Virus record (IMG/VR): IMGVR_UViG_2537562191_000021
Coordinates: 1 to 23,605 of that record
Length of the DNA stretch: 23,605 nt
Strand: one strand, 5' to 3'
Source of the DNA: a virus
Lineage: Duplodnaviria; Heunggongvirae; Uroviricota; Caudoviricetes
A program made the translations under genes and the position numbers. The stretch's first letter is position 1. Each line of letters begins with the position of its first letter. The notes beneath the pieces were generated by a model, which was not told the origin of the DNA, searched no databases, and was given only the letters and a program-made list of their open reading frames with translations. This document shows, in pieces, positions 54-17,562 of this stretch.

Positions 54-1046
54 TTGCGCGAAAAAATGGCGAAAATGATCCCCGAAGAAGATAAAAGCGC
101 CCCAAAAATTGAGGGATCTTCAGCAATGATCCCTGGCGGTGCTGTGCAACGTGCCACATTGCCCACTACGAATGTGGCTCGCGACATGATGAAGAACGGC
201 GCAGAAGAACACCTGCGGTTAGCAATTCAAATGGCGCAAGAGCGCGCACTTCAGTATCAAAGCATTGTTGATCAGGAGGCCGAACGTCTACAGGCGGAAA
301 TAGACGCCTTGGGCGATAAAGAGCCAGAAGGAATGCACCCTGGGCAGCGCCTTCTCGGTCTAATCAGTGACGCGGCCTACTACATGAATGATTTTATCAG
401 TAGGTTGGCAGCTATATATCAGTCCGAACAAAAGCTGCGACAGGGGGATGAAAAGCTTCGTCAGAGCGCTCGCCAGCAAGCATTCAAAGAGGCTGAGGCC
501 AGAGAAAAACTCGAATTAGCACGCCTACAGGCCGAACAGCGTGGCAAAGAGATTGAATATCGCATTGGCGCTGACGCACGCGCTGCCAGAGTTATCGCCG
601 CCGCTATACGTATGCGTGAGCGCGAGGAACTGGATGATATCGGTGTTGCTGAATACATCGAGCGCCAGGGGGTCAGCGTCCCGGCTATCCTCGCGGCGCG
701 CGCGGCGAAAGCTATCACTCTTCTCGAACCACCTGTTTCTGACGTCAATGATGTTGATGATGAACAGCTGGACAAAGAGGCAAGGGAGTTTGCAACGCTT
801 CAGGCTAACCATCCGCAATGGCTGGCAGAGCGCCGGGCGGATGTGGCAACCATTGTTGAAGAATTGGGGTGCGGAGATTACGACCGCAATGGCGAGCGTA
901 AAGCTGGAGAATTCGAGGCCAACGACGAAGAGCTGGATATTGACCCTTCGGCAACGGCTGAAATTTACGGTGATTATGATGCATCTGATGCAGGGTATGA
1001 CGCCGGAGATGATGATATCGCGATAGAACCGCCGGAGGATGATTAA
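54..1046 (+). CDS. Putative terminase small / DNA-recognition subunit (PacA-like position), probably 5'-partial
   Basis: Reading frame is open from nt 3 to 1046; there is no well-spaced SD for TTG54 or ATG66, so the gene probably begins upstream of the window. Coiled-coil-like centre and strongly acidic C-terminus. Stop overlaps the start of the terminase large subunit gene (TAATG at 1044-1048). Function is inferred from position only. Confidence 0.35.
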   Translation: MREKMAKMIPEEDKSAPKIEGSSAMIPGGAVQRATLPTTNVARDMMKNGAEEHLRLAIQMAQERALQYQSIVDQEAERLQAEIDALGDKEPEGMHPGQRLLGLISDAAYYMNDFISRLAAIYQSEQKLRQGDEKLRQSARQQAFKEAEAREKLELARLQAEQRGKEIEYRIGADARAARVIAAAIRMREREELDDIGVAEYIERQGVSVPAILAARAAKAITLLEPPVSDVNDVDDEQLDKEAREFATLQANHPQWLAERRADVATIVEELGCGDYDRNGERKAGEFEANDEELDIDPSATAEIYGDYDASDAGYDAGDDDIAIEPPEDD

Positions 1047-2554
1047 TGGCTGGCGGGCGCAAGATTAAATGCGTCACCAGCGATCCACGCTGGCGCGATA
1101 TGGTAATCAAATACCGCTACAACTTTACCCAGGCTGTTGTCGATATTTTTGGGATGTTCCCCTCCCACCAGCAGCAGCAGATCATTCAGTCAGTGCAGGA
1201 AACGGGGAGTAGGACGACCGTCACGTCCGGACACGGAACGGGGAAGTCGTCCCTTACCGCGATGTTGCTGTTGATTTTTATGATCCTGTTCCCCGATGCC
1301 CGTGTCATCATTGTTGCTAACAAGATAGGCCAGGTAAAAACAGGCGTATTCAAATACGTTAAACAGTATTGGGCGAATGCAGTTAAGCGTCATGGGTGGT
1401 TGCAGACCTATTTTGTCCTCTCTGACACCATGTTTTATGAGCGCTCCCGTAAGGGGATTTGGGAAGTTCTCTGCAAAGGTTATCGACTCGGCAACGAAGA
1501 AGCGCTGGCGGGGGAACACGCGGCACATTTGCTTCTAATTCTGGACGAAGCATCTGGTATATCTGATAAGGCGATCGGCGTAATGACCGGTGCTCTTACT
1601 GAAGAAGATAACCGGATGTTGATGCTATCCCAGCCAACAAGGCCAAGTGGTTATTTCTACGATTCGCACCATTCTCAAGCAAAAACCCCAGACAACCCGA
1701 AAGGGATCTGGACAGCAATTGTTCTTAACTCGGAAGAATCACCGTTCGTCACACCACAATTCATCAAGCAGAAGCTTCTGGAATATGGCGGGCGCGATTC
1801 TATTGAGTACATGGTCAAGGTGCTTGGTCAGTTCCCACGAGAAATTAACGGCTATTTGCTTGGTCGTGATGAATGCGATCGCGCTGCTCGCCGCAAGGTG
1901 TTGTTGGAGAAAAACTGGGGATGGGTGGCAACGGCTGACGTTGGTAATGGGCGAGATAAGTCGGTCCTCAACATCTGCAAAGTATCTGGTCACAGGGATA
2001 AGCGGCGCGTTGTTAACTTTAAGGTAATGGAGATGCCTGGCACTATGGACCCATTGGCCTTTGCTGACTTCATATATAACGAATGTACGCCGGAAAAATA
2101 CCCGAATATAACAATCGCGGTTGATGCTGATGGTTTTGGTTCTGATACGTGTGCGCAGTTGGTGCGTCGTGGTGCGAACCCGGTACGTATTCGGTGGGGA
2201 AAACCCATGTTTGCGAACAAAGACAGGGAGCGATTTGTTAATCAGCGTGCCTACGCAAATATTATGGCGCGAGATGCCATAAAGTCAGGGCGTATGCGGA
2301 TAGACAGTGACCCTAAAACGGCAGAGCAAGCGTCAAAAATCCCCTTTTTACTGAATGAAGAAGGGAAAATGGCGATGATGCGCAAAGAGCACATGCGGCA
2401 AAAGCTAAACATCAAATCGCCTGACCGATGGGATACCTACTGCTTCACTATGCTGGTGGACTATGTGCCTGCTAATGAAGATATTGGTGCCGAAATGGCA
2501 ACTTTCCGAGATCAGGTTCTGGCGGATATCGAAATGCCGGATCTGGATATATAA
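1046..2554 (+). CDS. Terminase large subunit (ATPase plus nuclease)
   Basis: 502 aa. Walker A TSGHGTGKSS; Walker B LLLILDEASG; C-terminal RNase-H-like nuclease aspartates (VATADVGNG, AVDADGFG, SPDRWDT). Translationally coupled to the upstream ORF. Confidence 0.8.
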   Translation: MAGGRKIKCVTSDPRWRDMVIKYRYNFTQAVVDIFGMFPSHQQQQIIQSVQETGSRTTVTSGHGTGKSSLTAMLLLIFMILFPDARVIIVANKIGQVKTGVFKYVKQYWANAVKRHGWLQTYFVLSDTMFYERSRKGIWEVLCKGYRLGNEEALAGEHAAHLLLILDEASGISDKAIGVMTGALTEEDNRMLMLSQPTRPSGYFYDSHHSQAKTPDNPKGIWTAIVLNSEESPFVTPQFIKQKLLEYGGRDSIEYMVKVLGQFPREINGYLLGRDECDRAARRKVLLEKNWGWVATADVGNGRDKSVLNICKVSGHRDKRRVVNFKVMEMPGTMDPLAFADFIYNECTPEKYPNITIAVDADGFGSDTCAQLVRRGANPVRIRWGKPMFANKDRERFVNQRAYANIMARDAIKSGRMRIDSDPKTAEQASKIPFLLNEEGKMAMMRKEHMRQKLNIKSPDRWDTYCFTMLVDYVPANEDIGAEMATFRDQVLADIEMPDLDI

Positions 2555-2581: not shown

Positions 2582-3619
2582 TTACCAGAGCTTCGCGGCG
2601 TACTGCGTTTGGGGGAATGTGTATCCGTAACGTTCTTCGATTGCTTTGCCGTATTTTTTACGAGCTTCATTCAGTTTAATGCCGGTCAGGTCGTCTCCAG
2701 AGGCCATCATTACGTCTAACAATTCCAGATCCATTTTATCCAGCCTTGCCATTGCTTCACGTGATGTACGTATCTTACGTTCAATGATATGGCGAATAGC
2801 CGGATCGGCATCCTCCAGCATCTTAGCGGATTTCTGCTTAAGGCTTTCATTGCGAATATCGATGTTCCTTAAGATGTACGACTTCGCAACGTAGCTTGGC
2901 TGGTGTTTTTCCAGGTCACGAACACGATATAAGTTAAAATCGCCGAGAAGGCTGCAAGGTACCGATTCGACGCCAGAATAAATTGTAATGCTCCGGCGTT
3001 CACCAACATTATTGACAACGGGGATCGTTGTCTTCGGTAGTCTTGCGAAAACCAATGCGCCATGTGCGCCAACTCTAAAGCGAGAAAGGGCATTGCTGCC
3101 TTCGATGTTTGTTGTCAGCACAACATCTGTATATGCCTCTTTACGCGCCCGGTAGATCTCGCCTTCAGGCTCAGCTTCAAAGAAGCGCTGTTCTTCTTCA
3201 AGAGCACCTACGATTTGAGAAAAAACCCTATTTTTCAGGCTTTTCTTTATGATTTTGTCGTATTTTTTTAGCAATTGTTCACGTGTAAATGTACGTGTTG
3301 TTGTAGCGCTTTGCACAACGACATGCGTGCTTTGATTGGTGTCCTCAATGATGAATGGGATCGGAGAATATACAGACTCAACAATGTTCGACGCTTTGCC
3401 GTCGGCATCGCGGCACATGTCAACGAAGGCTTTCCATTCAGCAAGACATTTTTCAGCTTCTTCTAATATGTTTTGGTCATGCGTTAATGCAACATGGCGG
3501 AATTCCTCGCCAGCATAACTGGTATCATGGAAAACAGAGTTTGCGACCACCAGCTCTTTCCACCGTTCAGCGGTTTGCAGGAACCGTTTGTACTCTTTCT
3601 CGATCGACTTCTTACTCAT
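2582..3619 (-). CDS. Hypothetical protein, 345 aa, no recognised domain; sits at the position an immunity repressor occupies in P1-type genomes
   Basis: Long ORF with no competing frame; divergent from the cre-like gene across an AT-rich 394-bp control region; the recurrent 13-bp motif lies 17-29 bp upstream of its start codon. Confidence 0.6.
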   Translation of the reverse strand: MSKKSIEKEYKRFLQTAERWKELVVANSVFHDTSYAGEEFRHVALTHDQNILEEAEKCLAEWKAFVDMCRDADGKASNIVESVYSPIPFIIEDTNQSTHVVVQSATTTRTFTREQLLKKYDKIIKKSLKNRVFSQIVGALEEEQRFFEAEPEGEIYRARKEAYTDVVLTTNIEGSNALSRFRVGAHGALVFARLPKTTIPVVNNVGERRSITIYSGVESVPCSLLGDFNLYRVRDLEKHQPSYVAKSYILRNIDIRNESLKQKSAKMLEDADPAIRHIIERKIRTSREAMARLDKMDLELLDVMMASGDDLTGIKLNEARKKYGKAIEERYGYTFPQTQYAAKLW

Positions 3620-3828: not shown

Positions 3829-3862
3829 ATAACTTTAAATAATTGGCATTATTTAAAGTTAG
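3829..3862. other. lox-like recombination site (13-bp inverted repeats flanking an 8-bp asymmetric spacer)
   Basis: ATAACTTTAAATA / ATTGGCAT / TATTTAAAGTTAG. The right arm reverse-complements to CTAACTTTAAATA, a 12/13 match to the left arm. Arms share ATAACTT..ATA with the canonical loxP arm ATAACTTCGTATA. Lies 152 bp upstream of the Cre-family gene. Confidence 0.55.
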
Positions 3863-3870
3863 GCTATAAT
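3843..3870 (+). promoter_or_regulatory. Putative sigma70 promoter reading toward the cre-like gene, overlapping the lox-like spacer and right arm
   Basis: -35 TTGGCA (3843-3848), 16-bp spacer, -10 TATAAT (3865-3870). Confidence 0.3.
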
Positions 3871-4013: not shown

Positions 4014-5042
4014 ATGAGTGAATTAATTATCTCTGGCAGTTCCGGTGGTTTTCTGCGCAACATTGGCAAAGAGTACCAGGAGGCCGCAGAAAACTTTATG
4101 CGGTTCATGAATGACCAGGGGGCTTACGCGCCGAATACTTTGCGCGATCTCCGGTTAGTGTTTCACTCTTGGGCGAGATGGTGTCACGCTCGCCAGCTCG
4201 CCTGGTTCCCGATCTCACCAGAGATGGCCCGCGAGTATTTTCTTCAGCTGCATGATGCTGATCTGGCTTCGACCACCATTGATAAGCACTACGCCATGCT
4301 GAACATGCTGCTTTCGCATTGTGGCCTTCCACCACTTTCGGATGATAAAAGTGTTTCTCTGGCTATGCGGCGCATCCGGCGCGAAGCGGCAACTGAAAAA
4401 GGCGAACGAACAGGCCAGGCTATACCGCTGCGGTGGGACGATCTGAAACTGCTCGACGTCCTGCTGTCCAGGTCAGAACGGCTGGTGGACCTGCGCAACC
4501 GGGCTTTTCTCTTTGTTGCATACAATACGCTGATGCGTATGTCGGAAATATCGCGTATTCGTGTAGGAGATCTGGACCAAACAGGTGACACTGTCACGCT
4601 ACATATTTCACACACGAAGACAATAACGACCGCCGCCGGGCTTGATAAGGTGCTTTCCCGTCGCACTACCGCTGTGCTGAATGACTGGCTGGATGTTTCA
4701 GGGCTTCGCGAACATCCTGACGCAGTGCTGTTCCCGCCGATACACCGTAGCAATAAGGCCAGGCTCACGACAACGCCCCTTACTGCACCTGCAATGGAGA
4801 AAATATTCAGCGACGCCTGGGTGTTGCTGAATAAAAGAGATGCTACGCCAAACAAAGGAAGATACCGGACGTGGACCGGGCATAGTGCACGCGTCGGGGC
4901 CGCTATTGATATGGCTGAAAAGCAGGTGTCTATGGTGGAGATCATGCAGGAAGGAACCTGGAAGAAACCGGAAACACTTATGCGGTATCTTCGCCGTGGC
5001 GGCGTGTCTGTGGGGGCTAATAGCCGCCTGATGGATTTATAA
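4014..5042 (+). CDS. cre: Cre-family tyrosine site-specific recombinase
   Basis: 342 aa, alignable along its length to P1 Cre as remembered (WFP..PE, LNML..GLP.PSD, AFL..AYNTL.R..EI.RIRV.D, HSARVGAA.DMA, W...RYLR). Catalytic Arg-His-Arg-Trp-Tyr positions are conserved. SD AGAGG 8 nt upstream. Confidence 0.85.
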   Translation: MSELIISGSSGGFLRNIGKEYQEAAENFMRFMNDQGAYAPNTLRDLRLVFHSWARWCHARQLAWFPISPEMAREYFLQLHDADLASTTIDKHYAMLNMLLSHCGLPPLSDDKSVSLAMRRIRREAATEKGERTGQAIPLRWDDLKLLDVLLSRSERLVDLRNRAFLFVAYNTLMRMSEISRIRVGDLDQTGDTVTLHISHTKTITTAAGLDKVLSRRTTAVLNDWLDVSGLREHPDAVLFPPIHRSNKARLTTTPLTAPAMEKIFSDAWVLLNKRDATPNKGRYRTWTGHSARVGAAIDMAEKQVSMVEIMQEGTWKKPETLMRYLRRGGVSVGANSRLMDL

Positions 5043-5045
5043 ATT

Positions 5046-5058
5046 AAATTTCTAACAC
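5046..5058 (+). promoter_or_regulatory. Recurrent motif copy (AAATTTCTAACAC) immediately downstream of the cre-like stop
   Basis: 10/13 match to AGTTTTCTAACAT with core TTCTAACA intact; lies between the cre-like stop and the SD of the next gene. Confidence 0.3.
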
Positions 5059-5115
5059 ATCTTTTTAGATTAACGCCTTTGCTGTAAAGTACCCTCGCCT
5101 ATTTAGGAGGGTGCT

Positions 5116-5460
5116 TTGCAGAGTCAAATCACGGAATCAAGACGCTTCAAGGTGGAAGGTTACACCGTAACCTTCGCCGCTGGTGTTAAGAACAGTCATG
5201 CTGTCGTTGTGTTCGGCATCATGACCGGGCTTGAGGCCGTCCCTGTGTTTACCCTCGAAAAAAACTGGCGAAATCTGGCGGAAGCAGAAAGCTACGTCCG
5301 GAAAGTAACCATCATTGCCGCCGAAAAACTCCTGGCCCACTATCAGGAAAATTATCGCACTATGGTCGAGAAGATTAATCTCGCTTTCACTCGCCCCACT
5401 ACCGGCTTTATTGCACCGGATACTAATGCAGGTCGATATCCTGCAAGGGGGCGTCGGTGA
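5116..5460 (+). CDS. Hypothetical protein, 114 aa (TTG start)
   Basis: Strong SD AGGAGG (5105-5110) 5 nt before TTG at 5116; first gene of a tightly packed six-gene plus-strand cluster. Confidence 0.5.
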   Translation: MQSQITESRRFKVEGYTVTFAAGVKNSHAVVVFGIMTGLEAVPVFTLEKNWRNLAEAESYVRKVTIIAAEKLLAHYQENYRTMVEKINLAFTRPTTGFIAPDTNAGRYPARGRR

Positions 5461-5933
5461 AAACTTATTACCCATCTCTGAATTGTTACCCGTCTTCCTA
5501 TCCAGAATTATCCGGGAAGCTGTTAGCTCTATTAGCTAAAGCACCTACGGAATGGTTTAAGCCAGTCGTTATCAATCCACACTTCCTGGATTACGGAACT
5601 GTTCGCACTCGTAACGAACTCAAAAACCTACTGGCGCATGGATTCATTCGACACCGTGCCGGGAAAGGCTATCAGTTAGCGATTGCGCCAGAAGAGGCCG
5701 TGCGGCTATTCGCATATCGTGACAGCCAGACAAAAGCTCGGGTAATAGCTCAAATACTTCATAACGGCAGCACCTATGCCCGCCAGTTTGGCGGCGACAC
5801 GTCGCAGTTCTTGCGGGCGGTGCGATCGCTGGAGGAGCAAGGAGTTATTGAAAGTTCCTGTCTTCCTGTTCCTACCGTTCCACATATCAAACGTCGGGTT
5901 TACACCTTCACGCAGAGAGCTAAAAAACAATGA
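5457..5933 (+). CDS. Hypothetical protein, 158 aa (GTG start overlapping the upstream stop)
   Basis: Start overlaps the previous stop; its own stop overlaps the dut start (ATGA at 5930-5933). Confidence 0.5.
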   Translation: MKTYYPSLNCYPSSYPELSGKLLALLAKAPTEWFKPVVINPHFLDYGTVRTRNELKNLLAHGFIRHRAGKGYQLAIAPEEAVRLFAYRDSQTKARVIAQILHNGSTYARQFGGDTSQFLRAVRSLEEQGVIESSCLPVPTVPHIKRRVYTFTQRAKKQ

Positions 5934-6424
5934 TTTACGTAAAAGTGAAACGCCTACATCCGGCAGCAAAACTTCCAGCTTATGCCACCTCCGGATCGGC
6001 GGCGATGGATTTTGAGGCTGTTGAAATAAAACCATGCGTCGATAGCAATGGTGCAATTTCCTCAAGCTGGTGGGTGTACACCGGACTGGCTATGGAGATC
6101 CCGCCCGGCTGGTGTCTGAAACTCTATCCGCGCTCCGGATTGGGCTGCAAAAAACATACTCGCCTGGCTAACTGCGTAGGAATTATCGACTCAGATTATC
6201 GCGGTGAAATCATGGCAAAACTGATTACTGATCCCGGCGGGGAAGGCGTTTGTCTCAAGCCTGGAATGGCTGTCATGCAAGGCATTTTTGAGCGTGTTGA
6301 ACAAGTCTCACTAGTCGAGGTTGAGGAACTCAACGAAACGGAACGTGGTGCTGGTGGCTTTGGTAGCACATCGGAAGACCACTTTGAAATCAAGCGCACA
6401 CCGCTTCAGTACGCAAAGTTTTAA
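5930..6424 (+). CDS. dut: dUTP pyrophosphatase (trimeric dUTPase)
   Basis: Conserved dUTPase motifs in order: AKLP..AT.GSAAMD, PRSGLG, GIIDSDYRGE, GMAVMQGIF, ERGAGGFGSTS. Confidence 0.85.
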   Translation: MIYVKVKRLHPAAKLPAYATSGSAAMDFEAVEIKPCVDSNGAISSSWWVYTGLAMEIPPGWCLKLYPRSGLGCKKHTRLANCVGIIDSDYRGEIMAKLITDPGGEGVCLKPGMAVMQGIFERVEQVSLVEVEELNETERGAGGFGSTSEDHFEIKRTPLQYAKF

Positions 6425-6438
6425 GCAGAGGAAAGGCT

Positions 6439-7089
6439 ATGAATTACATGGCAACGAAAGAGCTTTTTAAGTTCCTTCCCAAATACAAAGCTCACAAAAA
6501 CGTTAGTGCATCGAAAATCAAAAATGTTGTTATTTTCGGAGTAACTGATGCCCCACTTTGGGGCTGCATTGAACTCGTTGAACCAAAAGGGGCAACAGTT
6601 TGTGTTGACGCAATGTTTTTACAAAAACACCGACCAAAAACTGGCGGGTATCTGATCGTTTATGAAAACGGTTATCTGTTCTATGCCCCGGAGAAACCAT
6701 TTGAGGAATGCTATGGCCTGGTTAACGACGCCTCCGAAAATGGAACCACGGTCATCATTACGGATGACAACGGCGTGATGATTAATATTACCGGGAGTGT
6801 AACTATTTCTGCTGGTGGTACCACTACCCAGCAAGAGGAAATCGACCTTGAAGCAGCCGACTTTTCTGATGCGCTAATGTGGCTGAAAGAAGGAAAAAAT
6901 GTAGCTCGACGCGAGTGGAAAGGCGAAAAGCAATTCTGCTGGTTAGTTCTCGCTGGGAGCGTCAATTTACACGACATTCAGGTTCCTTATGGTGACCATT
7001 TCGTATTGAAAGATGCACAAAATATGGACAGCGTTTGGTTGCCGTCTGTTGATGATTTACTGGCTTGTGACTGGTTTGTAGTGGAGTGA
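6439..7089 (+). CDS. Hypothetical protein, 216 aa, with a Trp-rich C-terminal domain resembling DUF2829 (from memory)
   Basis: C-terminus DFSDALMWLKEGKNVARREWKGEKQFCWLV...WLPSVDDLLACDWFVVE. SD GAGGAAAGG before ATG 6439/6448. Confidence 0.55.
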   Translation: MNYMATKELFKFLPKYKAHKNVSASKIKNVVIFGVTDAPLWGCIELVEPKGATVCVDAMFLQKHRPKTGGYLIVYENGYLFYAPEKPFEECYGLVNDASENGTTVIITDDNGVMINITGSVTISAGGTTTQQEEIDLEAADFSDALMWLKEGKNVARREWKGEKQFCWLVLAGSVNLHDIQVPYGDHFVLKDAQNMDSVWLPSVDDLLACDWFVVE

Positions 7090-7095
7090 TTTGAC

Positions 7096-7863
7096 ATGGA
7101 AAGCACCAAAACAATTCAATACCGCTTGCGTAATGGCCTGCTGGTGGCTGTTAACGCCGACATGTCACTGCCGTTTGACACGATTGAACGCACTATCATG
7201 ACGTATCTCGGCTTTAATGAAGAGCTGAATGAAGAGCATGGCGTAGCTATATGGAGTGATGCAGACAGCGGCGTTCGTCGTTACATCACCGCCAGGGGCA
7301 AAGACTACTCTCTGGAAGAACTGTTTGCCCTTGCACAGTCTTTCGAATGTGTAGCATTAGACCTGTTTAATGATCCTGCTATAGCGCAACGACTTATACG
7401 CGAGCTTGGGCTATCCGTTACACCAATTATCTTTAAAAATGGCAGCCTGACTGGCACATGGCGCGTAGAACGCATCTCAAACTACCTTCCATATAACCGA
7501 CAGTTAAATGGAGTAATCTCCGGTGTTAATCAGCCCGTAGCGTGTGAAAATGTAAACCTGGTTGTCGCTGTTTTGGCAACCGCATGTCGTGTTATCGGTT
7601 TGGCTAAACAGGCATTTATTCATTTCCCAAATGGTGCAGAGGGTAGCGCAGAGATTATCGCGTGTGATTTCGAATTTACCTGGATGCTACGCGAATATCT
7701 GGACCAAACAGTGTTCCGCGCCGAAGAACTGGATATGTATATCACGTCAACGATTCCTGATGATGTGCGTGCTGAAGCAATCGCTACAGCAAGGGCCAAA
7801 TGCCGTGCGGCGATTGCAGAGCAGGCCAAAGAAGAAGTTAAGGAAGTGGCAGATGGCGACTAA
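7096..7863 (+). CDS. Hypothetical protein, 255 aa, partner of the degenerate terminase paralog
   Basis: Stop overlaps the downstream ATG by 11 nt (ATG 7853, stop 7861-7863), the same coupled arrangement as the packaging pair at 54-2554; no detectable similarity to the 54-1046 product. Confidence 0.55.
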   Translation: MESTKTIQYRLRNGLLVAVNADMSLPFDTIERTIMTYLGFNEELNEEHGVAIWSDADSGVRRYITARGKDYSLEELFALAQSFECVALDLFNDPAIAQRLIRELGLSVTPIIFKNGSLTGTWRVERISNYLPYNRQLNGVISGVNQPVACENVNLVVAVLATACRVIGLAKQAFIHFPNGAEGSAEIIACDFEFTWMLREYLDQTVFRAEELDMYITSTIPDDVRAEAIATARAKCRAAIAEQAKEEVKEVADGD

Positions 7864-8947
7864 GAGCAATATTTATAAAGATCCGCGCTGGCTGTCGCTG
7901 GTGGAGAAATATAAAGACAATTGGGTTCTGGCAGCAAAAGAATTGTTTGATATTGATTTAAGCCACCAGCAACAACAAATTGTTGAAGCTATACAGCCCA
8001 ATAATGCAAAAGCTACTGTCACAACTCCGCATGGGATCGGACGACCGCAAGTGCTTGCTGTTATTAGTACCCTTTATACGATTATGTATCCTGATTCCCG
8101 GACAGTAATTGTTTATCCAAAATCAAATGCTTGCAAAAAAGGAATTGTTGCATATGTGTGGCAATGTTGGGAGGCATTACTGAAAAAACAACCTTTTATC
8201 ATTGAGTATTTTAAGGTCGGTGATAGCGGTCTGATGTTCAATGAATTTTGGGGAATGTGCTTTTGTAACTACCGCCTTAACTATGAAGATAGCATTGCAG
8301 GTCACTACGCCGACCATCTGTTATTCATTATTGTGGATTCCGCACATATAAGCGATCGGGCATACAGTATTGTGTGGGCAAGCATGACTAGTGGTGATTC
8401 ACGCATATTGCTCACTTCAATTCCGTCACCAGAGGAAATAGGATTTTTTTATGATTCTCATCATGGGCGTGCTTTAGCTGAAGATAATCCGAGTGGTGTC
8501 TATAAAGCCATTAAGCTGAGTGCTGAGGATTCACCATTTATTACCCAAGAATATCTTGATCATTTTGCCGAAAGGTATGGCGGGCGAAATAGTGATGACT
8601 ACCGTCGTATGATTCTTGGTGAGTTCCCTGGTATTAGGGAGGCTGTTCTTGAATCAGATATGCCGAAAACAATGCGTTTTTCAATGCCTGATGGCAGTGA
8701 ATGGACAATGCCATTACGAGTGATAGCCAAGCATCATGCACAGCACCACGCCAAAAAACATGGCGTTACAACATTAGAGTGGTTGAAATCGCACACCATT
8801 CCACTCTTCACTGCAGATCACAATGCTATCGTTGAGTGGGCAAAAACAATTCCGTGGGGGAATGTCGCTGAATACGCCCACATGCTAAAACCGCCGAAAG
8901 ACAGGCAAGAAATTAGCTGGCTGACAGCAGAAAAAATCATTGAGTGA
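7853..8947 (+). CDS. Terminase-large-subunit ATPase-domain paralog with degenerate Walker motifs and no nuclease domain (pseudo-terminase)
   Basis: 364 aa from ATG 7853 (SD AAGGAAG). Shares DPRW, HQQQQI, YFYDSHH, DNP.G, L..E.SPF.T and GEFP blocks with the 1046-2554 protein, but Walker A reads TTPHGIGRPQV (Lys to Arg, Ser to Pro) and Walker B reads LLFIIVDSAH (catalytic Glu lost). The C-terminal nuclease half is replaced by an unrelated 90-aa His-rich tail. The longer ORF from 7562 is rejected. Confidence 0.7.
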   Translation: MATKSNIYKDPRWLSLVEKYKDNWVLAAKELFDIDLSHQQQQIVEAIQPNNAKATVTTPHGIGRPQVLAVISTLYTIMYPDSRTVIVYPKSNACKKGIVAYVWQCWEALLKKQPFIIEYFKVGDSGLMFNEFWGMCFCNYRLNYEDSIAGHYADHLLFIIVDSAHISDRAYSIVWASMTSGDSRILLTSIPSPEEIGFFYDSHHGRALAEDNPSGVYKAIKLSAEDSPFITQEYLDHFAERYGGRNSDDYRRMILGEFPGIREAVLESDMPKTMRFSMPDGSEWTMPLRVIAKHHAQHHAKKHGVTTLEWLKSHTIPLFTADHNAIVEWAKTIPWGNVAEYAHMLKPPKDRQEISWLTAEKIIE

Positions 8948-8953
8948 TAGTAG

Positions 8954-8984
8954 GAAGCCCGCTTGGTTGAGCGGGCTTCTTTTC
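8954..8984 (+). terminator. Intrinsic terminator closing the plus-strand island
   Basis: gaagcccgc-ttggttga-gcgggcttc, a 9-bp stem, followed by TTTTC; lies between the convergent pseudo-terminase and doc genes. Confidence 0.5.
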
Positions 8985-9363
8985 AAATATTGGAACCATA
9001 TAGTTCACGTAGTTTTTCCGCTACTGAAGATACGGGGATTTCACCAGTTGCAGCCCCCACCGCAAGTTCCACCAGCACGGGAGAATCATATACCTGTATA
9101 CCGTTACGGCGTAGAAATAGCAGCGCACTGTTTAGCGCGGTACGCTTATTGGCATCATTGAATATATGCCCTCTCGCAGTAGCCACCAGGTAGGTTGCGG
9201 AGACTTCGAAAAGGTCGGTGATCTCTTCGTAGGCAACTCTGGCCTGAACTCTCCCGATAATGGCCTCTGCCCTACCCGGATCTGACATTCCCGGCAGGCC
9301 GCCGTAGCGGCTTATATTCGCATCATGAAGCGCAATAAGTTCTTCCGGTGATATATGCCTCAT
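8983..9363 (-). CDS. doc: Doc toxin (Fic-fold kinase, death on curing)
   Basis: 126 aa, essentially co-linear with P1 Doc as remembered; Fic motif HIFNDANKR with His at position 66. Start overlaps the phd stop. Confidence 0.9.
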
Positions 9364-14511: not shown

Positions 14512-14991
14512 TTACTCACCTTCTTTGATGCGAATGCCAGCGGCGCGTGGCACATTAACTTCCACGATGCGCACAGTTGGTTTGTACATCTCAATCGCTG
14601 TCAGCCAGTCAGCGCCGGTCATATGCTTTTCTGCATCGCCATTAGTCCATTGAACCGGCACGCCAATAGCTTTCATCGCAATTTCTATTTCCCCGGCAAT
14701 GGCGCTTTTCCCGCAACCAGTAAAACCAGAGACAACGACAAGAACTTCGCCTTTGGCTGGTTTTATTTCCCGCGCCTCCACCTCTGCAATTCGGCACATA
14801 GCATCGATATTTGTGTCTTCCAGGCGTTTAACTTCATCCAATAATGCCAACGCGATATCTGGCGAAAAGTGCTTCATAAAATCGTTAAGCGCATTAATTC
14901 GCTGATCGAAAGGCATTACAGGCGCTTCACCAGCAATTTTTGTTTTTTCAGCAATTTCACGAAGCTTTTGATAGTCAATTTTGTTTGTCAT
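14512..14991 (-). CDS. Hypothetical protein, 159 aa: Ead/Ea22-like N-terminus plus a short P-loop-like segment
   Basis: N-terminus MTNKIDYQKLREIAEKT; VVVSGFTGCGKS resembles a Walker A loop, but the protein is too short for a complete NTPase fold. Confidence 0.45.
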   Translation of the reverse strand: MTNKIDYQKLREIAEKTKIAGEAPVMPFDQRINALNDFMKHFSPDIALALLDEVKRLEDTNIDAMCRIAEVEAREIKPAKGEVLVVVSGFTGCGKSAIAGEIEIAMKAIGVPVQWTNGDAEKHMTGADWLTAIEMYKPTVRIVEVNVPRAAGIRIKEGE

Positions 14992-15866
14992 GCCACTACC
15001 TCTTCGAATCTCAACTCCAATTGGTCACCCCAGATTTCACATGATTCGGAACACGAACCAGTATCAAACCGCTTGGCCTGCACCATCGCCTGATACAAAT
15101 TTCTGTAGTCGCTGTCGGCATACATTCTGGCAATCCCGTCAAGCGTCAGGTGACCACGGTACATAACGTCTTTACCTGTTCTGCGATGACCATCCCTGAC
15201 GTGTTTGCCTGTAACCAGCTCATTAAAAATTCGCATCAGACCAGGTTCGTCTTTACATGCAAGCCCCAGCTTTTGCGTTGACTTTTTGATGCAAAAAACA
15301 CAGTTCCCGAGGTGCTCCGGGATTTGCAAATCAAAAGGTTGTTTTCGCCACCACCGGATAACATCCGACTTATCAAAATCTGACAGCTCGGCAAGATACC
15401 GGACGCCCGGTTTCGGTTTCAGCCTACGGGGTTCGTCCGCACGAATACCCAGCCATGTGATGTAATTCCCTCGCCCAAAATGGTCATCGCAATATTTCGT
15501 GAAAGGGGTGAGTTTTAGCCTGTCAGTACAGAACGCGCCGCCGATGTATGGCGTACCGTACTTTTTAACCATGTCCATAAACGGTTTAAGCACCGGCATT
15601 CGCGTCTGAATATCCTTTGGTTCCCATTCCGTATAACCATTTGGCTGCCCAAGTTCTGGATTTATATCGACCTGCAACACCGTTAGCGGTACATTCCAGA
15701 ACTTCACAACCTCACGAATAAAGCGATACGTCAGAGGATGTTCACAGCCGGTATCCATAAAAATGAAATGGACGCTAGCGCCAGCTTTTCGCTGTGCTTC
15801 CATCAGATGAACGAGATAAGCCGATGTTCGTCCACCTGAAAAGCTGACGACTTGATGCATACTCAC
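14988..15866 (-). CDS. PAPS-reductase-like PP-loop ATP pyrophosphatase family protein
   Basis: 292 aa; N-terminal PP-loop SFSGGRTS; C-terminal Cys pairs (NCVFC, SCSESC) suggest metal or Fe-S binding. Confidence 0.7.
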   Translation of the reverse strand: MSMHQVVSFSGGRTSAYLVHLMEAQRKAGASVHFIFMDTGCEHPLTYRFIREVVKFWNVPLTVLQVDINPELGQPNGYTEWEPKDIQTRMPVLKPFMDMVKKYGTPYIGGAFCTDRLKLTPFTKYCDDHFGRGNYITWLGIRADEPRRLKPKPGVRYLAELSDFDKSDVIRWWRKQPFDLQIPEHLGNCVFCIKKSTQKLGLACKDEPGLMRIFNELVTGKHVRDGHRRTGKDVMYRGHLTLDGIARMYADSDYRNLYQAMVQAKRFDTGSCSESCEIWGDQLELRFEEVVA

Positions 15867-15869
15867 GGT

Positions 15870-16562
15870 TTATTCCTGAACGCGCTTAAACTCGATTACC
15901 CATACCCACGGGTTAGATAGCCAGTTATCCTGCCCGTAAATACTGCGCCAGATATCACCAAAACCAACGCGATAAACGGCTTCCGGCGGCGTAATTTTGT
16001 ACATCGCCGGAGATGCGCCTTCTGCTTTAGCATCTGCCTCGCTCATATCACGCAGCCGTTCCACACGCACGTCGGTAATTTCCAGCAAAATGCGCGATGC
16101 CCAGCGCGGCATGTGAATTGATGGACACCACCCGCCATCAAATTTTTCATTCACAGTGTGAGGTTTCCAGTCGGCATCATCGGGTATCGACCACAAGCCG
16201 TAATCACCCGGCTTTTGCTCACAACTGGCCCGATAAATCCTTGCTGCGTTCTTCTCATCGCCACGACAAAGGTTGTCGTTCCAGTCCACACTGCAACCAT
16301 CCTCATTGCCTAATATCGCCCACGCCTCACGGACCCATATGCGATCACCAACGTTACCGAACGGGCATAAACCATGTTCAGGTGCATCCATAACGTGGGT
16401 ATAGACACCATTGCGTTTCTTGGTCGGTTTACGGATAACCAGGCAGTTATCGGCCCTGACATTTTTTACAGGTCGGCGAGTCTGCGTCTTCCTTCCTTCG
16501 AGGATGGCCCTGACCATCTCATCGTTAAAAATCATCCCGCGTTCTTTCATTTTTTGATCCAC
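15870..16562 (-). CDS. ASCH-domain protein, 230 aa
   Basis: N-terminal MIFNDEMVRAILEGRKTQTRRP (GxKTxTRR) and C-terminal VWVIEFKRV resemble ASCH proteins such as YqfB (remembered: ILAGRKTITIR ... YVIEFKCL). Confidence 0.5.
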   Translation of the reverse strand: MDQKMKERGMIFNDEMVRAILEGRKTQTRRPVKNVRADNCLVIRKPTKKRNGVYTHVMDAPEHGLCPFGNVGDRIWVREAWAILGNEDGCSVDWNDNLCRGDEKNAARIYRASCEQKPGDYGLWSIPDDADWKPHTVNEKFDGGWCPSIHMPRWASRILLEITDVRVERLRDMSEADAKAEGASPAMYKITPPEAVYRVGFGDIWRSIYGQDNWLSNPWVWVIEFKRVQE

Positions 16563-16566
16563 CTCA

Positions 16567-17562
16567 TCAGTTATTGAACGTGATCACTCCGCGCTCGATG
16601 GCGAAGTCGAAAAGCTGGTTAGCTGCTACGTAAAGGCGTATGCCATGTGCTTTTTCCCATGCCCGGACATCGTTTTCTGCGCTTCTGGCGCAGTCATCGC
16701 AAAGAGGAACAGCCCAGCGGTCGTGTTCGTTTAACGAGCGGGCGCGGTACATGAATGGGTGATTAACCTTGCCGCCGCAGCCTACACACGGGCGAGACAC
16801 CACAAACCGGAGATAAGCCGGGCTTTTTCCGAGTAAGGTTTTTGGACGGCGCATATATAGGAGGCCAGAATCTTCATCGACGGACAGATTGACGATCTGC
16901 TCTGCGGAAATATCCACCAGCTCGCGGGTACTATGCTCCCAGGTAATATCCGACTCTTTCAGAGTGCCGGTAGGGATTTCAGTTTTTGGCTGACAAAATG
17001 CAATGCGACCAGCTTCATCAGGCAGTTCGTCTTTAAGATTCCGGCGAATGGCCCAAAAGGTGAGTTCAACCATGCTCAGATCGCGATCTGGCGGAAGTTT
17101 TAACTCGCTGGCAGCCCAGTTCATAATCCAGTTGGCGCGATTCAGTGACAGTTGGTCTTCCAGCTTGCCGTATCCCTTCATCATGTATTCCGCATCATGC
17201 TTCCAGCACAGGCGAACGGCAGAACCGTTATAGAAATGGGTGGTTAACTGGTGGCTGCAATCGCGCTTATCATGCGCCTGGCAATCGTGAATGTTGGTGC
17301 TAACCCAGTGAACGAGAGAATCCTCACCACCTAACGCGTTAAATACGCGCTCACTTTGAAAAAAGGGTGCCAGTGACTGGTTGGTAACCAGTGAATAATT
17401 CAGGTCAACGACACCATCAGGGGTGTTTTCAGCCTGTTCACGCGGCAATGGGGATATAAGAAAACGACGTCCTGCGCCGATGTAATTGCTGGTGGGCTTA
17501 TCTACAGGAAAGACAGCCACACCAGTTTCATTTACGACATATGGGGTGATTATTGCACTCAT
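16567..17562 (-). CDS. DUF968-like protein, 331 aa, with a C-terminal Cys cluster
   Basis: C-terminus CVGCGGKVNHPFMYRARSLNEHDRWAVPLCDDCAR; DUF968 assignment is from memory of lambdoid-prophage proteins. Confidence 0.5.
   Translation of the reverse strand: MSAIITPYVVNETGVAVFPVDKPTSNYIGAGRRFLISPLPREQAENTPDGVVDLNYSLVTNQSLAPFFQSERVFNALGGEDSLVHWVSTNIHDCQAHDKRDCSHQLTTHFYNGSAVRLCWKHDAEYMMKGYGKLEDQLSLNRANWIMNWAASELKLPPDRDLSMVELTFWAIRRNLKDELPDEAGRIAFCQPKTEIPTGTLKESDITWEHSTRELVDISAEQIVNLSVDEDSGLLYMRRPKTLLGKSPAYLRFVVSRPCVGCGGKVNHPFMYRARSLNEHDRWAVPLCDDCARSAENDVRAWEKAHGIRLYVAANQLFDFAIERGVITFNN

Follow-up and report, generated by a model that had tools for sequence, protein, structure and literature searches.

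Organization of the locus

The window considered here is a stretch of 23,605 nucleotides (positions 1 to 23,605 of the IMG/VR virus record IMGVR_UViG_2537562191_000021) from a D6-like phage-plasmid of the P1 family, and it contains, together with an intact pair of terminase genes, pacA and pacB, a second gene related to pacB that lies about 5.3 kb downstream of the pair (pacB ends at 2554). This gene, which we refer to as pTerL, encodes a non-catalytic, nuclease-less paralogue of the phage's own terminase large subunit (TerL), PacB, and it belongs to an old, monophyletic group of accessory genes in P1-family phage-plasmids, which is conserved and at the same time diversifies fast. A preliminary interpretation made from the DNA letters alone (the sequence-only reading) had proposed that a dead motor subunit is retained beside a functional terminase, and in the window this is the case. 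The features that are needed for the argument are as follows.

54–1046, plus strand: PacA, the terminase small (pac-recognition) subunit, matching the terminase family phrog_1711; the N-terminus is cut by the window edge
1046–2554, plus strand: bona fide PacB (TerL, 502 residues), with GHGTGKS, LDEASG and SQPT motifs and the nuclease half intact
7096–7863, plus strand: isaA homologue, 255 residues, upstream neighbour of pTerL
7840–7863, plus strand: Shine–Dalgarno sequence AAGGAAG (7840–7846) and the 11 nt overlap of the pTerL start with the isaA stop (7853–7863)
7853–8947, plus strand: pTerL, the dead PacB paralogue, 364 residues, an ATPase-like domain followed by a tail domain
7853–8632, plus strand: ATPase-like domain (residues 1–260), homologue of the TerL N-terminal domain and the allele-variable segment
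8024–8050, plus strand: degenerate P-loop TPHGIGRPQ (residues 58–66), with R64 for the Walker A Lys and P65 for the Ser; PacB has SGHGTGKSS
8318–8338, plus strand: degenerate Walker B motif LLFIIVD (residues 156–162), with V161 for the Asp and D162 for the catalytic Glu; PacB has LLLILDE
8633–8944, plus strand: tail domain (residues 261–364), a separate small phage domain of about 95 residues with no nuclease, corresponding to the C-terminus of phrog_17928

Between positions 7000 and 9000 the window is 100% identical to the Escherichia coli plasmid pE2863-2 (NZ_AP018804.1), and it shares 96–99% identity with many non-mobilizable plasmids of 87–96 kb from E. coli and Salmonella. The same two coding sequences (7096–7863 and 7853–8947) are annotated by RefSeq on pE2863-2, where the PacA equivalent is labelled 'DNA pacase A subunit'. 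The window PacB is 56% identical to that of P1. The pTerL ATG lies 6 nt after AAGGAAG. A longer open reading frame (ORF) beginning at TTG 7562, as in the 438-residue 'terminase' entry P0001 from a metagenome-assembled genome (MAG), was rejected as having the wrong start; this ORF runs across isaA in another frame, and a good Shine–Dalgarno sequence precedes the ATG at 7853.

Relationship of pTerL to PacB

The pTerL protein (364 residues) aligns with residues 10–264 of the window PacB at 38% identity over 258 residues (BLASTP, E = 4e-58), and the alignment ends at the GEFP block (residue 259). The homology to the ATPase half of the terminase that had been recognized from the sequence is thus upheld, with correct coordinates and frames, and the match goes far past anything that chance would give. 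In register with PacB, the Walker A Lys and Ser are replaced by R64 and P65, and the catalytic Glu of Walker B by D162, both as first proposed; the Walker B Asp is lost too (V161), and the coupling motif (motif III) is SQPT in PacB but SIPS in pTerL. No other frame or start restores the Walker residues. An AF2 model of pTerL has a mean predicted local distance difference test score (pLDDT) of 69, with high values over residues 1–190; its best matches in the Protein Data Bank (Foldseek) are the TerL ATPase domains of P74-26, D6E, T4 gp17 and Sf6, and in the viral structure library BFVD it matches terminase large subunits. Alignment and structure prediction therefore agree in giving a shared TerL ATPase fold from which the catalytic residues are gone.

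The nuclease domain is absent, and residues 261–364 have no similarity to the C-terminus of PacB. The proposal that the nuclease had been exchanged for an unrelated His-rich tail is sound as to the loss of the nuclease and the unrelated C-terminus, but only the E. coli lineage has the His-rich run, which other proteins with the tail domain do not share. Identity to PacB peaks at residues 1–60 (the N-terminal arm and Q motif) and 190–260, and reaches its minimum in the catalytic core. Set against the PacBs of P1 and D6, pTerL has a homologous ASCE ATPase domain (33–38% identity) with the same predicted fold, shares the DPRW, QQ, FYDSHH, NP.G, YGGR.S and G.FP blocks, and is carried by the same phage-plasmid elements; it differs in lacking the Walker A Lys and Ser, the Walker B Asp and Glu, SQPT and the nuclease/portal-docking half, in not lying beside pacA, in being accessory and not universal, and in falling in a separate clade.

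Four of the five defining features of a TerL are missing from pTerL, namely a Walker A motif of the form GxxxxGK[ST], a Walker B motif of the form hhhhDE, an RNase H-like nuclease domain and an adjacent small-subunit gene, and only the N-terminal ASCE ATPase fold is present; the gene should therefore not carry the annotation of terminase large subunit. Some records (MH422554 and MAG entries) do label it in this way, which may mislead pipelines for packaging type and phylogeny. The protein matches phrog_5902 from end to end (E = 2e-165, residues 4–363 on positions 2–358 of 359), a profile that is also scored by the N-terminal 364 residues of PacB. Searches of Pfam, NCBIfam and PADLOC gave no match for pTerL, the tail or IsaA, with PHROGs of unknown function alone matching, and there was no defence-protein match to any of the three in PADLOC-DB at E values up to 0.1.

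A family of dead PacB paralogues

A word-indexed protein search gave only eight clusters, and the wider family was reached only when 1.8 billion representative proteins were searched exhaustively with HMMER. The relatives found in this way, at 35–40% identity, are ATPase-only proteins of 252–268 residues, together with one of 444 residues that has a different C-terminus. The Walker A Lys, the Walker B Asp-Glu pair and SQPT are missing in every such ATPase-only relative. At the Lys position the 13 dead relatives have R, Q, H, E, M, C, T or I and never K, which is invariably present in 14 full-length proteins; the Asp position is occupied in the dead family by V, T, A, M, I, P or L, and the Glu position by D, E, N, H or Q. 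The replaced catalytic positions thus vary freely, as expected where there is no constraint. Full-length relatives (490–570 residues, plus one sequence of 360 residues) all keep GTGKS or GIGKT, DE and SQPT. The blocks that are conserved in dead and live proteins alike are DPRW...Y..NW, QQ, G.G, LAG, FYDSHH, SP.V, YGGR.S..Y and G.FP.

When a neighbour-joining tree was built from the ATPase domain, eleven dead sequences (the protein P0044 not counted) fell in a single clade in each of the 100 bootstraps, apart from the 14 full-length TerLs; the E. coli alleles among the eleven have identities of 52–76%, and the others of 35–40%. P0044 (268 residues, ATPase-only, with GAFDSTRS and VVSKAAE at the two Walker motifs) has also lost the Walker residues and lies outside the dead clade, monophyly of all dead sequences being recovered in only 6 of 100 bootstraps; it may represent an independent inactivation event. 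The D6-type and P1-type dead copies are 49–52% identical to each other and only 33–38% identical to the PacBs, and the PacBs of the two types share 56–60% identity. Since the dead copies are closer to each other than to PacB, duplication and inactivation must have occurred before the D6 and P1 lineages separated.

Comparison of the whole gene with five plasmids in which it is 96–99% identical gave ratios of non-synonymous to synonymous substitution rates (dN/dS) of 0.06–0.18, with similar values when the ATPase part and the tail were each treated alone, and the ORF is intact in all five. In the plasmid database PLSDB 790 records match the protein, mostly P1-family phage-plasmids, and 163 of them (about one-fifth) have a full-length dead copy; a second, PacB-type match occurs in all 13 dead-copy records among the matches listed. 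The window allele was found in 36 of 5426 complete E. coli genomes and is always plasmid-borne. Wherever the context of a dead relative could be read, a C1_P7 repressor or cre identified the element as a P1-family phage-plasmid, and the element's own pacA and pacB were seen for the window and for L013, L019 and L036; in L013 they lie a few kb away.

Two of the more distant members (L010 7336–8792 and L016 8001–9335) have other companions. One overlaps a Ref-like RecA-dependent nuclease gene by 4 bp, and the other carries a different C-terminal extension of about 180 residues and is followed by a LysM-domain gene. With such different neighbours and extensions, the dead ATPase domain has evidently been combined with different modules.

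The C-terminal tail domain

The tail of pTerL occurs elsewhere as a domain in its own right. It is a stand-alone ORF immediately after a DnaB-like helicase gene in Cronobacter phage JK004, and it forms the C-terminus of ORF36, a 511-residue DUF1351 protein encoded beside Erf, exonuclease and single-stranded DNA-binding protein (SSB) genes in Xanthomonas phage CP2; metagenomic phages also carry it as a small ORF of its own, surrounded by early-type genes. The stand-alone copies sit in strings of small phage ORFs. Its core is MPDGS.W.VP..VIA...PLF...DWA.NNMNW.DV...GW.NGEK, and a search for a related solved structure found none. Tail relatives lie at L006 5001–5297 and at about L007 3920–4300 and in P0067, P0112, P0132 and P0140, and two of the stand-alone forms carry a Cys-rich N-terminal extension of the CxxC type.

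The tail is absent from the family members of 252–268 residues, including the D6-type allele P0007 (266 residues), which is 76% identical. Since most members of the family have no tail, the core function must lie in the dead ATPase-like domain.

IsaA and the cassette slot

The 255-residue product of the gene upstream of pTerL (7096–7863) is a homologue of P1 IsaA (48% identity; phrog_2326). The sequence-only reading had regarded it as a dedicated partner, coupled to pTerL as PacA is to PacB; this view did not survive comparison with other elements. IsaA is non-essential in P1 (PMC10695390), and the isaA region is a known variable region of P1-like plasmids (PMC9603915, PMC6906374). The gene is found without the dead paralogue in phage D6, where pdcA comes next, in reference P1, where IS1 and an unrelated isaB come next, and in Raoultella, Enterobacter and Klebsiella phage-plasmids, in which the cre string simply ends with it. 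Conversely, dead paralogues occur without IsaA in L009, L010 and L016, and the genes found upstream of related dead copies are the Ref-like RecA-dependent nuclease gene (with its 4 bp overlap), a radical-SAM gene or small ORFs; the dead copy in L013 is preceded by an 880 bp stretch with no called gene. The possibility that homologues of pTerL always occur with the 255-residue protein is thus refuted in both directions. Adjacency of isaA and the paralogue is nevertheless seen at two genome positions, after ssb in the P1-type and after the Tad2-like gene in the D6-type, so that a loose linkage exists, but not a dedicated two-subunit system, and the start–stop overlap of the two genes reflects no more than the usual tight spacing of genes in phage operons.

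IsaA is unrelated to PacA (hhalign probability 0.1%), as had been supposed for the 7096–7863 and 54–1046 products. Its predicted fold gives weak PD-(D/E)xK-like or dsRBD-like matches, with Z no higher than 6.9.

When reference P1 is compared with the P1-like phage MH422554, homology breaks exactly at the isaA stop and resumes at hxr (L003 6003–7121, L005 5533–7245), showing that the dead paralogue and IS1 with isaB are alternative cassettes of one slot, with no remnant left behind. We considered P1 isaB as a possible remnant of the dead paralogue and rejected it; the two are unrelated, and the difference between reference P1 and MH422554 is a clean cassette swap. The corresponding slot of the D6-type holds pdcA in D6 and an arsenic-resistance operon in a Raoultella element.

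Exchange of alleles

The plasmid CP088573.1 (L018/L036) encodes PacA, PacB and C1 proteins that are 100% identical to those of the window, a Cre that is 99% identical and an IsaA that is 97.6% identical, whereas its dead paralogue has only 64% protein identity to pTerL. The difference is confined to one part of the gene, with 61% nucleotide identity in the ATPase part (a synonymous divergence, dS, of about 1.4) and 97% in the tail. The plasmid L025 shows the same break (about 61% nucleotide identity in the ATPase part and 97% in the tail), but there isaA is divergent, at about 70%. Such a sharp break in identity indicates that the ATPase-like domain has been exchanged by recombination for a divergent allele while the packaging background remained identical, and no fewer than five alleles are in circulation among E. 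coli elements. Such exchange suggests that the ATPase-like domain may recognize a target outside the element's own PacA/PacB pair, with diversity being favoured.

As an observation on the packaging genes themselves, the PacAs of the D6-type and P1 are only 21% identical, compared with 56% for the PacBs (54–1046 and L036 1650–3014 versus L037 730–1923), so that the pac-recognition subunit is far more diverged than its motor subunit.

Expression context

The neighbouring features that bear on expression of pTerL are listed below.

2582–3619, minus strand: c1 repressor gene, P7-type
3843–3870, plus strand: sigma-70-like promoter TTGGCA-16-TATAAT, 5' of cre, with 11 of 12 consensus matches
4014–5042, plus strand: cre-like recombinase gene, followed by two small ORFs
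5930–6424, plus strand: dut
6439–7089, plus strand: Tad2-like (DUF2829) gene
8952–8985, no strand assigned: intrinsic terminator hairpin with a 13 bp GC-rich stem and U tract, between the convergent pTerL and doc genes

The genes from cre to pTerL (4014–8947) are co-directional, with gaps that are short or replaced by overlaps, and by this arrangement they appear to form an operon. The promoter at 3843–3870 is likely to be the start of this string, and the hairpin at 8952–8985, which has a fold energy of –22.7 kcal/mol (z = –4.5), probably ends the plus-strand operon; doc and phd lie 3' of the terminator and are convergent with pTerL. In P1-type elements the isaA–paralogue pair follows ssb, whose promoters carry a C1 operator, and in the P1 annotation pacA and pacB are late genes transcribed from LPpac, with the pac site inside pacA. 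From these placements it seems that in both types of element the dead paralogue would be expressed earlier than the real terminase. The P1 C1 operator consensus has no match in the window within three mismatches.

Relation to known systems

The closest described analogue of pTerL is T4 vs.8, an ATPase-only protein that is homologous to the corresponding domain of the T4 terminase and toxic in combination with EcAvs2 (PMC13601566). Both are stand-alone, nuclease-less proteins of the TerL-ATPase type that are encoded among early or accessory genes in a phage with a real TerL. They differ in that both Walker motifs are preserved in vs.8 (GGRQSGKS for Walker A, IIDEP for Walker B), and there is no detectable sequence similarity between vs.8 and the dead family (hhalign probability 0.5%), which points to an independent origin from a different TerL lineage. 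The Ksap1 and Ksap2 proteins, small phage products that activate KpAvs2 (PMC11564622, PMC13601566), are likewise lineage-restricted phage accessory proteins, and they resemble the TerL ATPase in secondary structure or as a weak fold; however, they are much smaller (74 residues in Ksap1) and have no terminase sequence homology, whereas pTerL is an unmistakable PacB paralogue.

Literature searches found no description of a dead terminase paralogue, either in the P1 family or elsewhere, which bears out the initial impression that no system of this kind had been described, vs.8 being the nearest. Satellites encode small non-enzymatic proteins (Ppi of the Staphylococcus aureus pathogenicity islands, Rpp of the phage-inducible chromosomal islands, and satellite variants of the terminase small subunit, TerS) that bind a subunit of the helper terminase and block or redirect packaging. 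These are conceptually similar in serving conflict between mobile elements, for which pTerL would be a putative counterpart; they differ in that the satellite proteins target or mimic the small subunit and are satellite-encoded, whereas pTerL mimics the large subunit and comes from a complete phage-plasmid with its own terminase. The pTerL family may be placed among the barely known stand-alone terminase-ATPase-like accessory proteins.

Possible functions of pTerL

TerL is treated as a single-copy, essential and catalytically invariant hallmark of the tailed phages, and it is also a main molecular pattern for bacterial immune sensors. Conserved dead copies beside a working enzyme imply a second, non-enzymatic use of the terminase fold, which could be a weapon against packaging or a brake on it, or a counter-measure to terminase sensing, and they bear on a question raised by papers from 2024–2026, namely the purpose of accessory proteins that resemble TerL, vs.8 and Ksap1/2 among them.

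The best explanation that we can offer, and we hold it tentatively, is that pTerL acts as a competitor of terminase assembly which is used against related P1-family phages. With no Walker residues and no nuclease half the protein would neither hydrolyse ATP nor cut DNA, and we infer that it can therefore act only by binding. It has kept the helical arm at the N-terminus, the Q motif and the C-terminal subdomain of the ATPase fold; decay has affected the catalytic core, and the portal-docking/nuclease half is missing. In lambda and P22 the N-terminus of TerL binds TerS and the C-terminus docks on the portal. A protein of the pTerL type might compete in assembly by binding PacA or monomeric PacB, and the resulting dead-end complexes would be unable to cleave pac or to translocate DNA. 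Its use would be in conflict, blocking or skewing the packaging of related P1-family phages that enter the same cell, and not in the element's own packaging; the swapping of alleles and the variability of the accessory slots favour such a role over a fixed one in packaging of the element itself.

Several points weigh against packaging interference. If the partner were the element's own PacA or PacB, co-variation of the alleles would be predicted, and no co-variation is seen. A P1-type copy, lying downstream of a C1-repressed ssb promoter, would be expected to be silent in the lysogen, which is a poor fit with exclusion by a prophage. A blocker of packaging should also threaten the element that encodes it. 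Moreover, in the absence of the C-terminal half, entry into the portal-bound ring is improbable, so that probably only a pre-assembly step is plausible as a target. Finally, the neighbours of the gene are anti-defence genes (the Tad2-like gene in the same string, and dar/ddr on the opposite strand in the P1-type), which favours an alternative that involves host immunity.

That alternative, the main rival, which is possible if somewhat doubtful, is that pTerL counters terminase-sensing immunity (Avs1-3, Upx), either as a mimic of the TerL ATPase with an erased ATP site that occupies the sensors but does not trigger them, or by capping monomeric PacB and thereby hiding it from the sensors. The dead paralogue ends a co-directional string that includes the Tad2-like anti-Thoeris gene and whose relatives carry a DNA methyltransferase, and the P1-type copy lies beside the dar/ddr anti-restriction genes, downstream of the early promoter of ssb, which C1 controls. 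EcAvs2 and Upx sense the TerL ATPase domain alone, and Avs2 and Avs3 contact the terminase-bound ATP and the active site, the features contacted being exactly those that pTerL has lost (PMC13601566); Avs sensors also appear to target monomeric forms (PMC13581612). Allele swaps on an identical PacAB background would fit an arms race with an outside partner. However, a mimic of an activating ligand should trigger the sensor, as the TerL-like proteins vs.8, Ksap1 and Ksap2 do, and loss of the ATP site more probably abolishes binding by Avs2 and Avs3 than yields an antagonist. The family is, furthermore, confined to P1-family elements, it has no PADLOC match, and literature searches found no such decoys. 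That the family as a whole is a viral antagonist of terminase-sensing immunity, with its divergent alleles tracking different host sensors, we consider unlikely; if true, it would be the first antagonist in phage–bacterium immunity to mimic a pathogen-associated molecular pattern (a 'PAMP-mimic antagonist'), and would suggest a function for vs.8 and the Ksap proteins.

Other explanations look away from conflict. A role in controlling packaging of the element itself, in which pTerL would titrate PacA as a safety catch or timer and so prevent pac from being cut in lysogeny or too early, would accord with the location of pac within pacA and the late expression of pacA and pacB in P1, with the earlier-expression placement of the dead copies (the ssb operon in the P1-type, the cre string behind a strong sigma-70-like promoter in the D6-type), and with their occurrence only in plasmid-living elements that have their own PacAB. 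Yet the gene is found in only about one-fifth of the plasmid records that match, both D6 and reference P1 thrive in its absence, its divergent alleles on identical PacA/PacB backgrounds give no sign of co-evolution with the supposed partner, and the PacAs of the D6-type and P1 are 21% identical when the dead copies are about 50% identical; we think such a regulator quite improbable. It is unlikely, too, that the scaffold has been re-used outside packaging and immunity, for example as a DNA- or protein-binding adaptor that works with the tail or IsaA in replication or recombination. The company kept by the tail domain, after dnaB in JK004 and on the DUF1351 protein beside Erf, exonuclease and SSB in CP2, would suit re-use of this kind, as would the position of the P1-type copies after ssb, the coupling of one relative to a Ref-like RecA-dependent nuclease and the PD-(D/E)xK-like or dsRBD-like matches of IsaA, but these last are weak (Z no higher than 6.9), most members of the family have no tail, IsaA is not a constant neighbour, and there is no hint of a new active site in the sequence. 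It is highly improbable that pTerL is simply a functionless, decaying remnant of a second terminase gene, as the loss of the catalytic residues and nuclease domain and its absence from many relatives might suggest. The ORF is intact in many plasmids with dN/dS of 0.06–0.18, the family is deep and monophyletic with conserved non-catalytic motifs, and the cassette boundaries are clean, with no pseudogene fragments nearby; monophyly, purifying selection and the lack of remnants together exclude a decayed second terminase, including one left by a second prophage, which had been raised at the outset as the finding that would overturn the proposal.

Other features of the window

The Tad2-like (anti-Thoeris, DUF2829) domain of the gene at 6439–7089 comprises only residues 141–215 of a 216-residue protein, preceded by an N-terminal extension of about 140 residues that has no family match; the phage D6 version has 146 residues. 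The minus-strand region 14988–17562 contains numerous small hypothetical ORFs, and on the identical plasmid it also includes a DUF968 (pdcB-like) gene and, two genes away from it, one of the PAPS-reductase family; this group may be a DNA-modification or accessory module.

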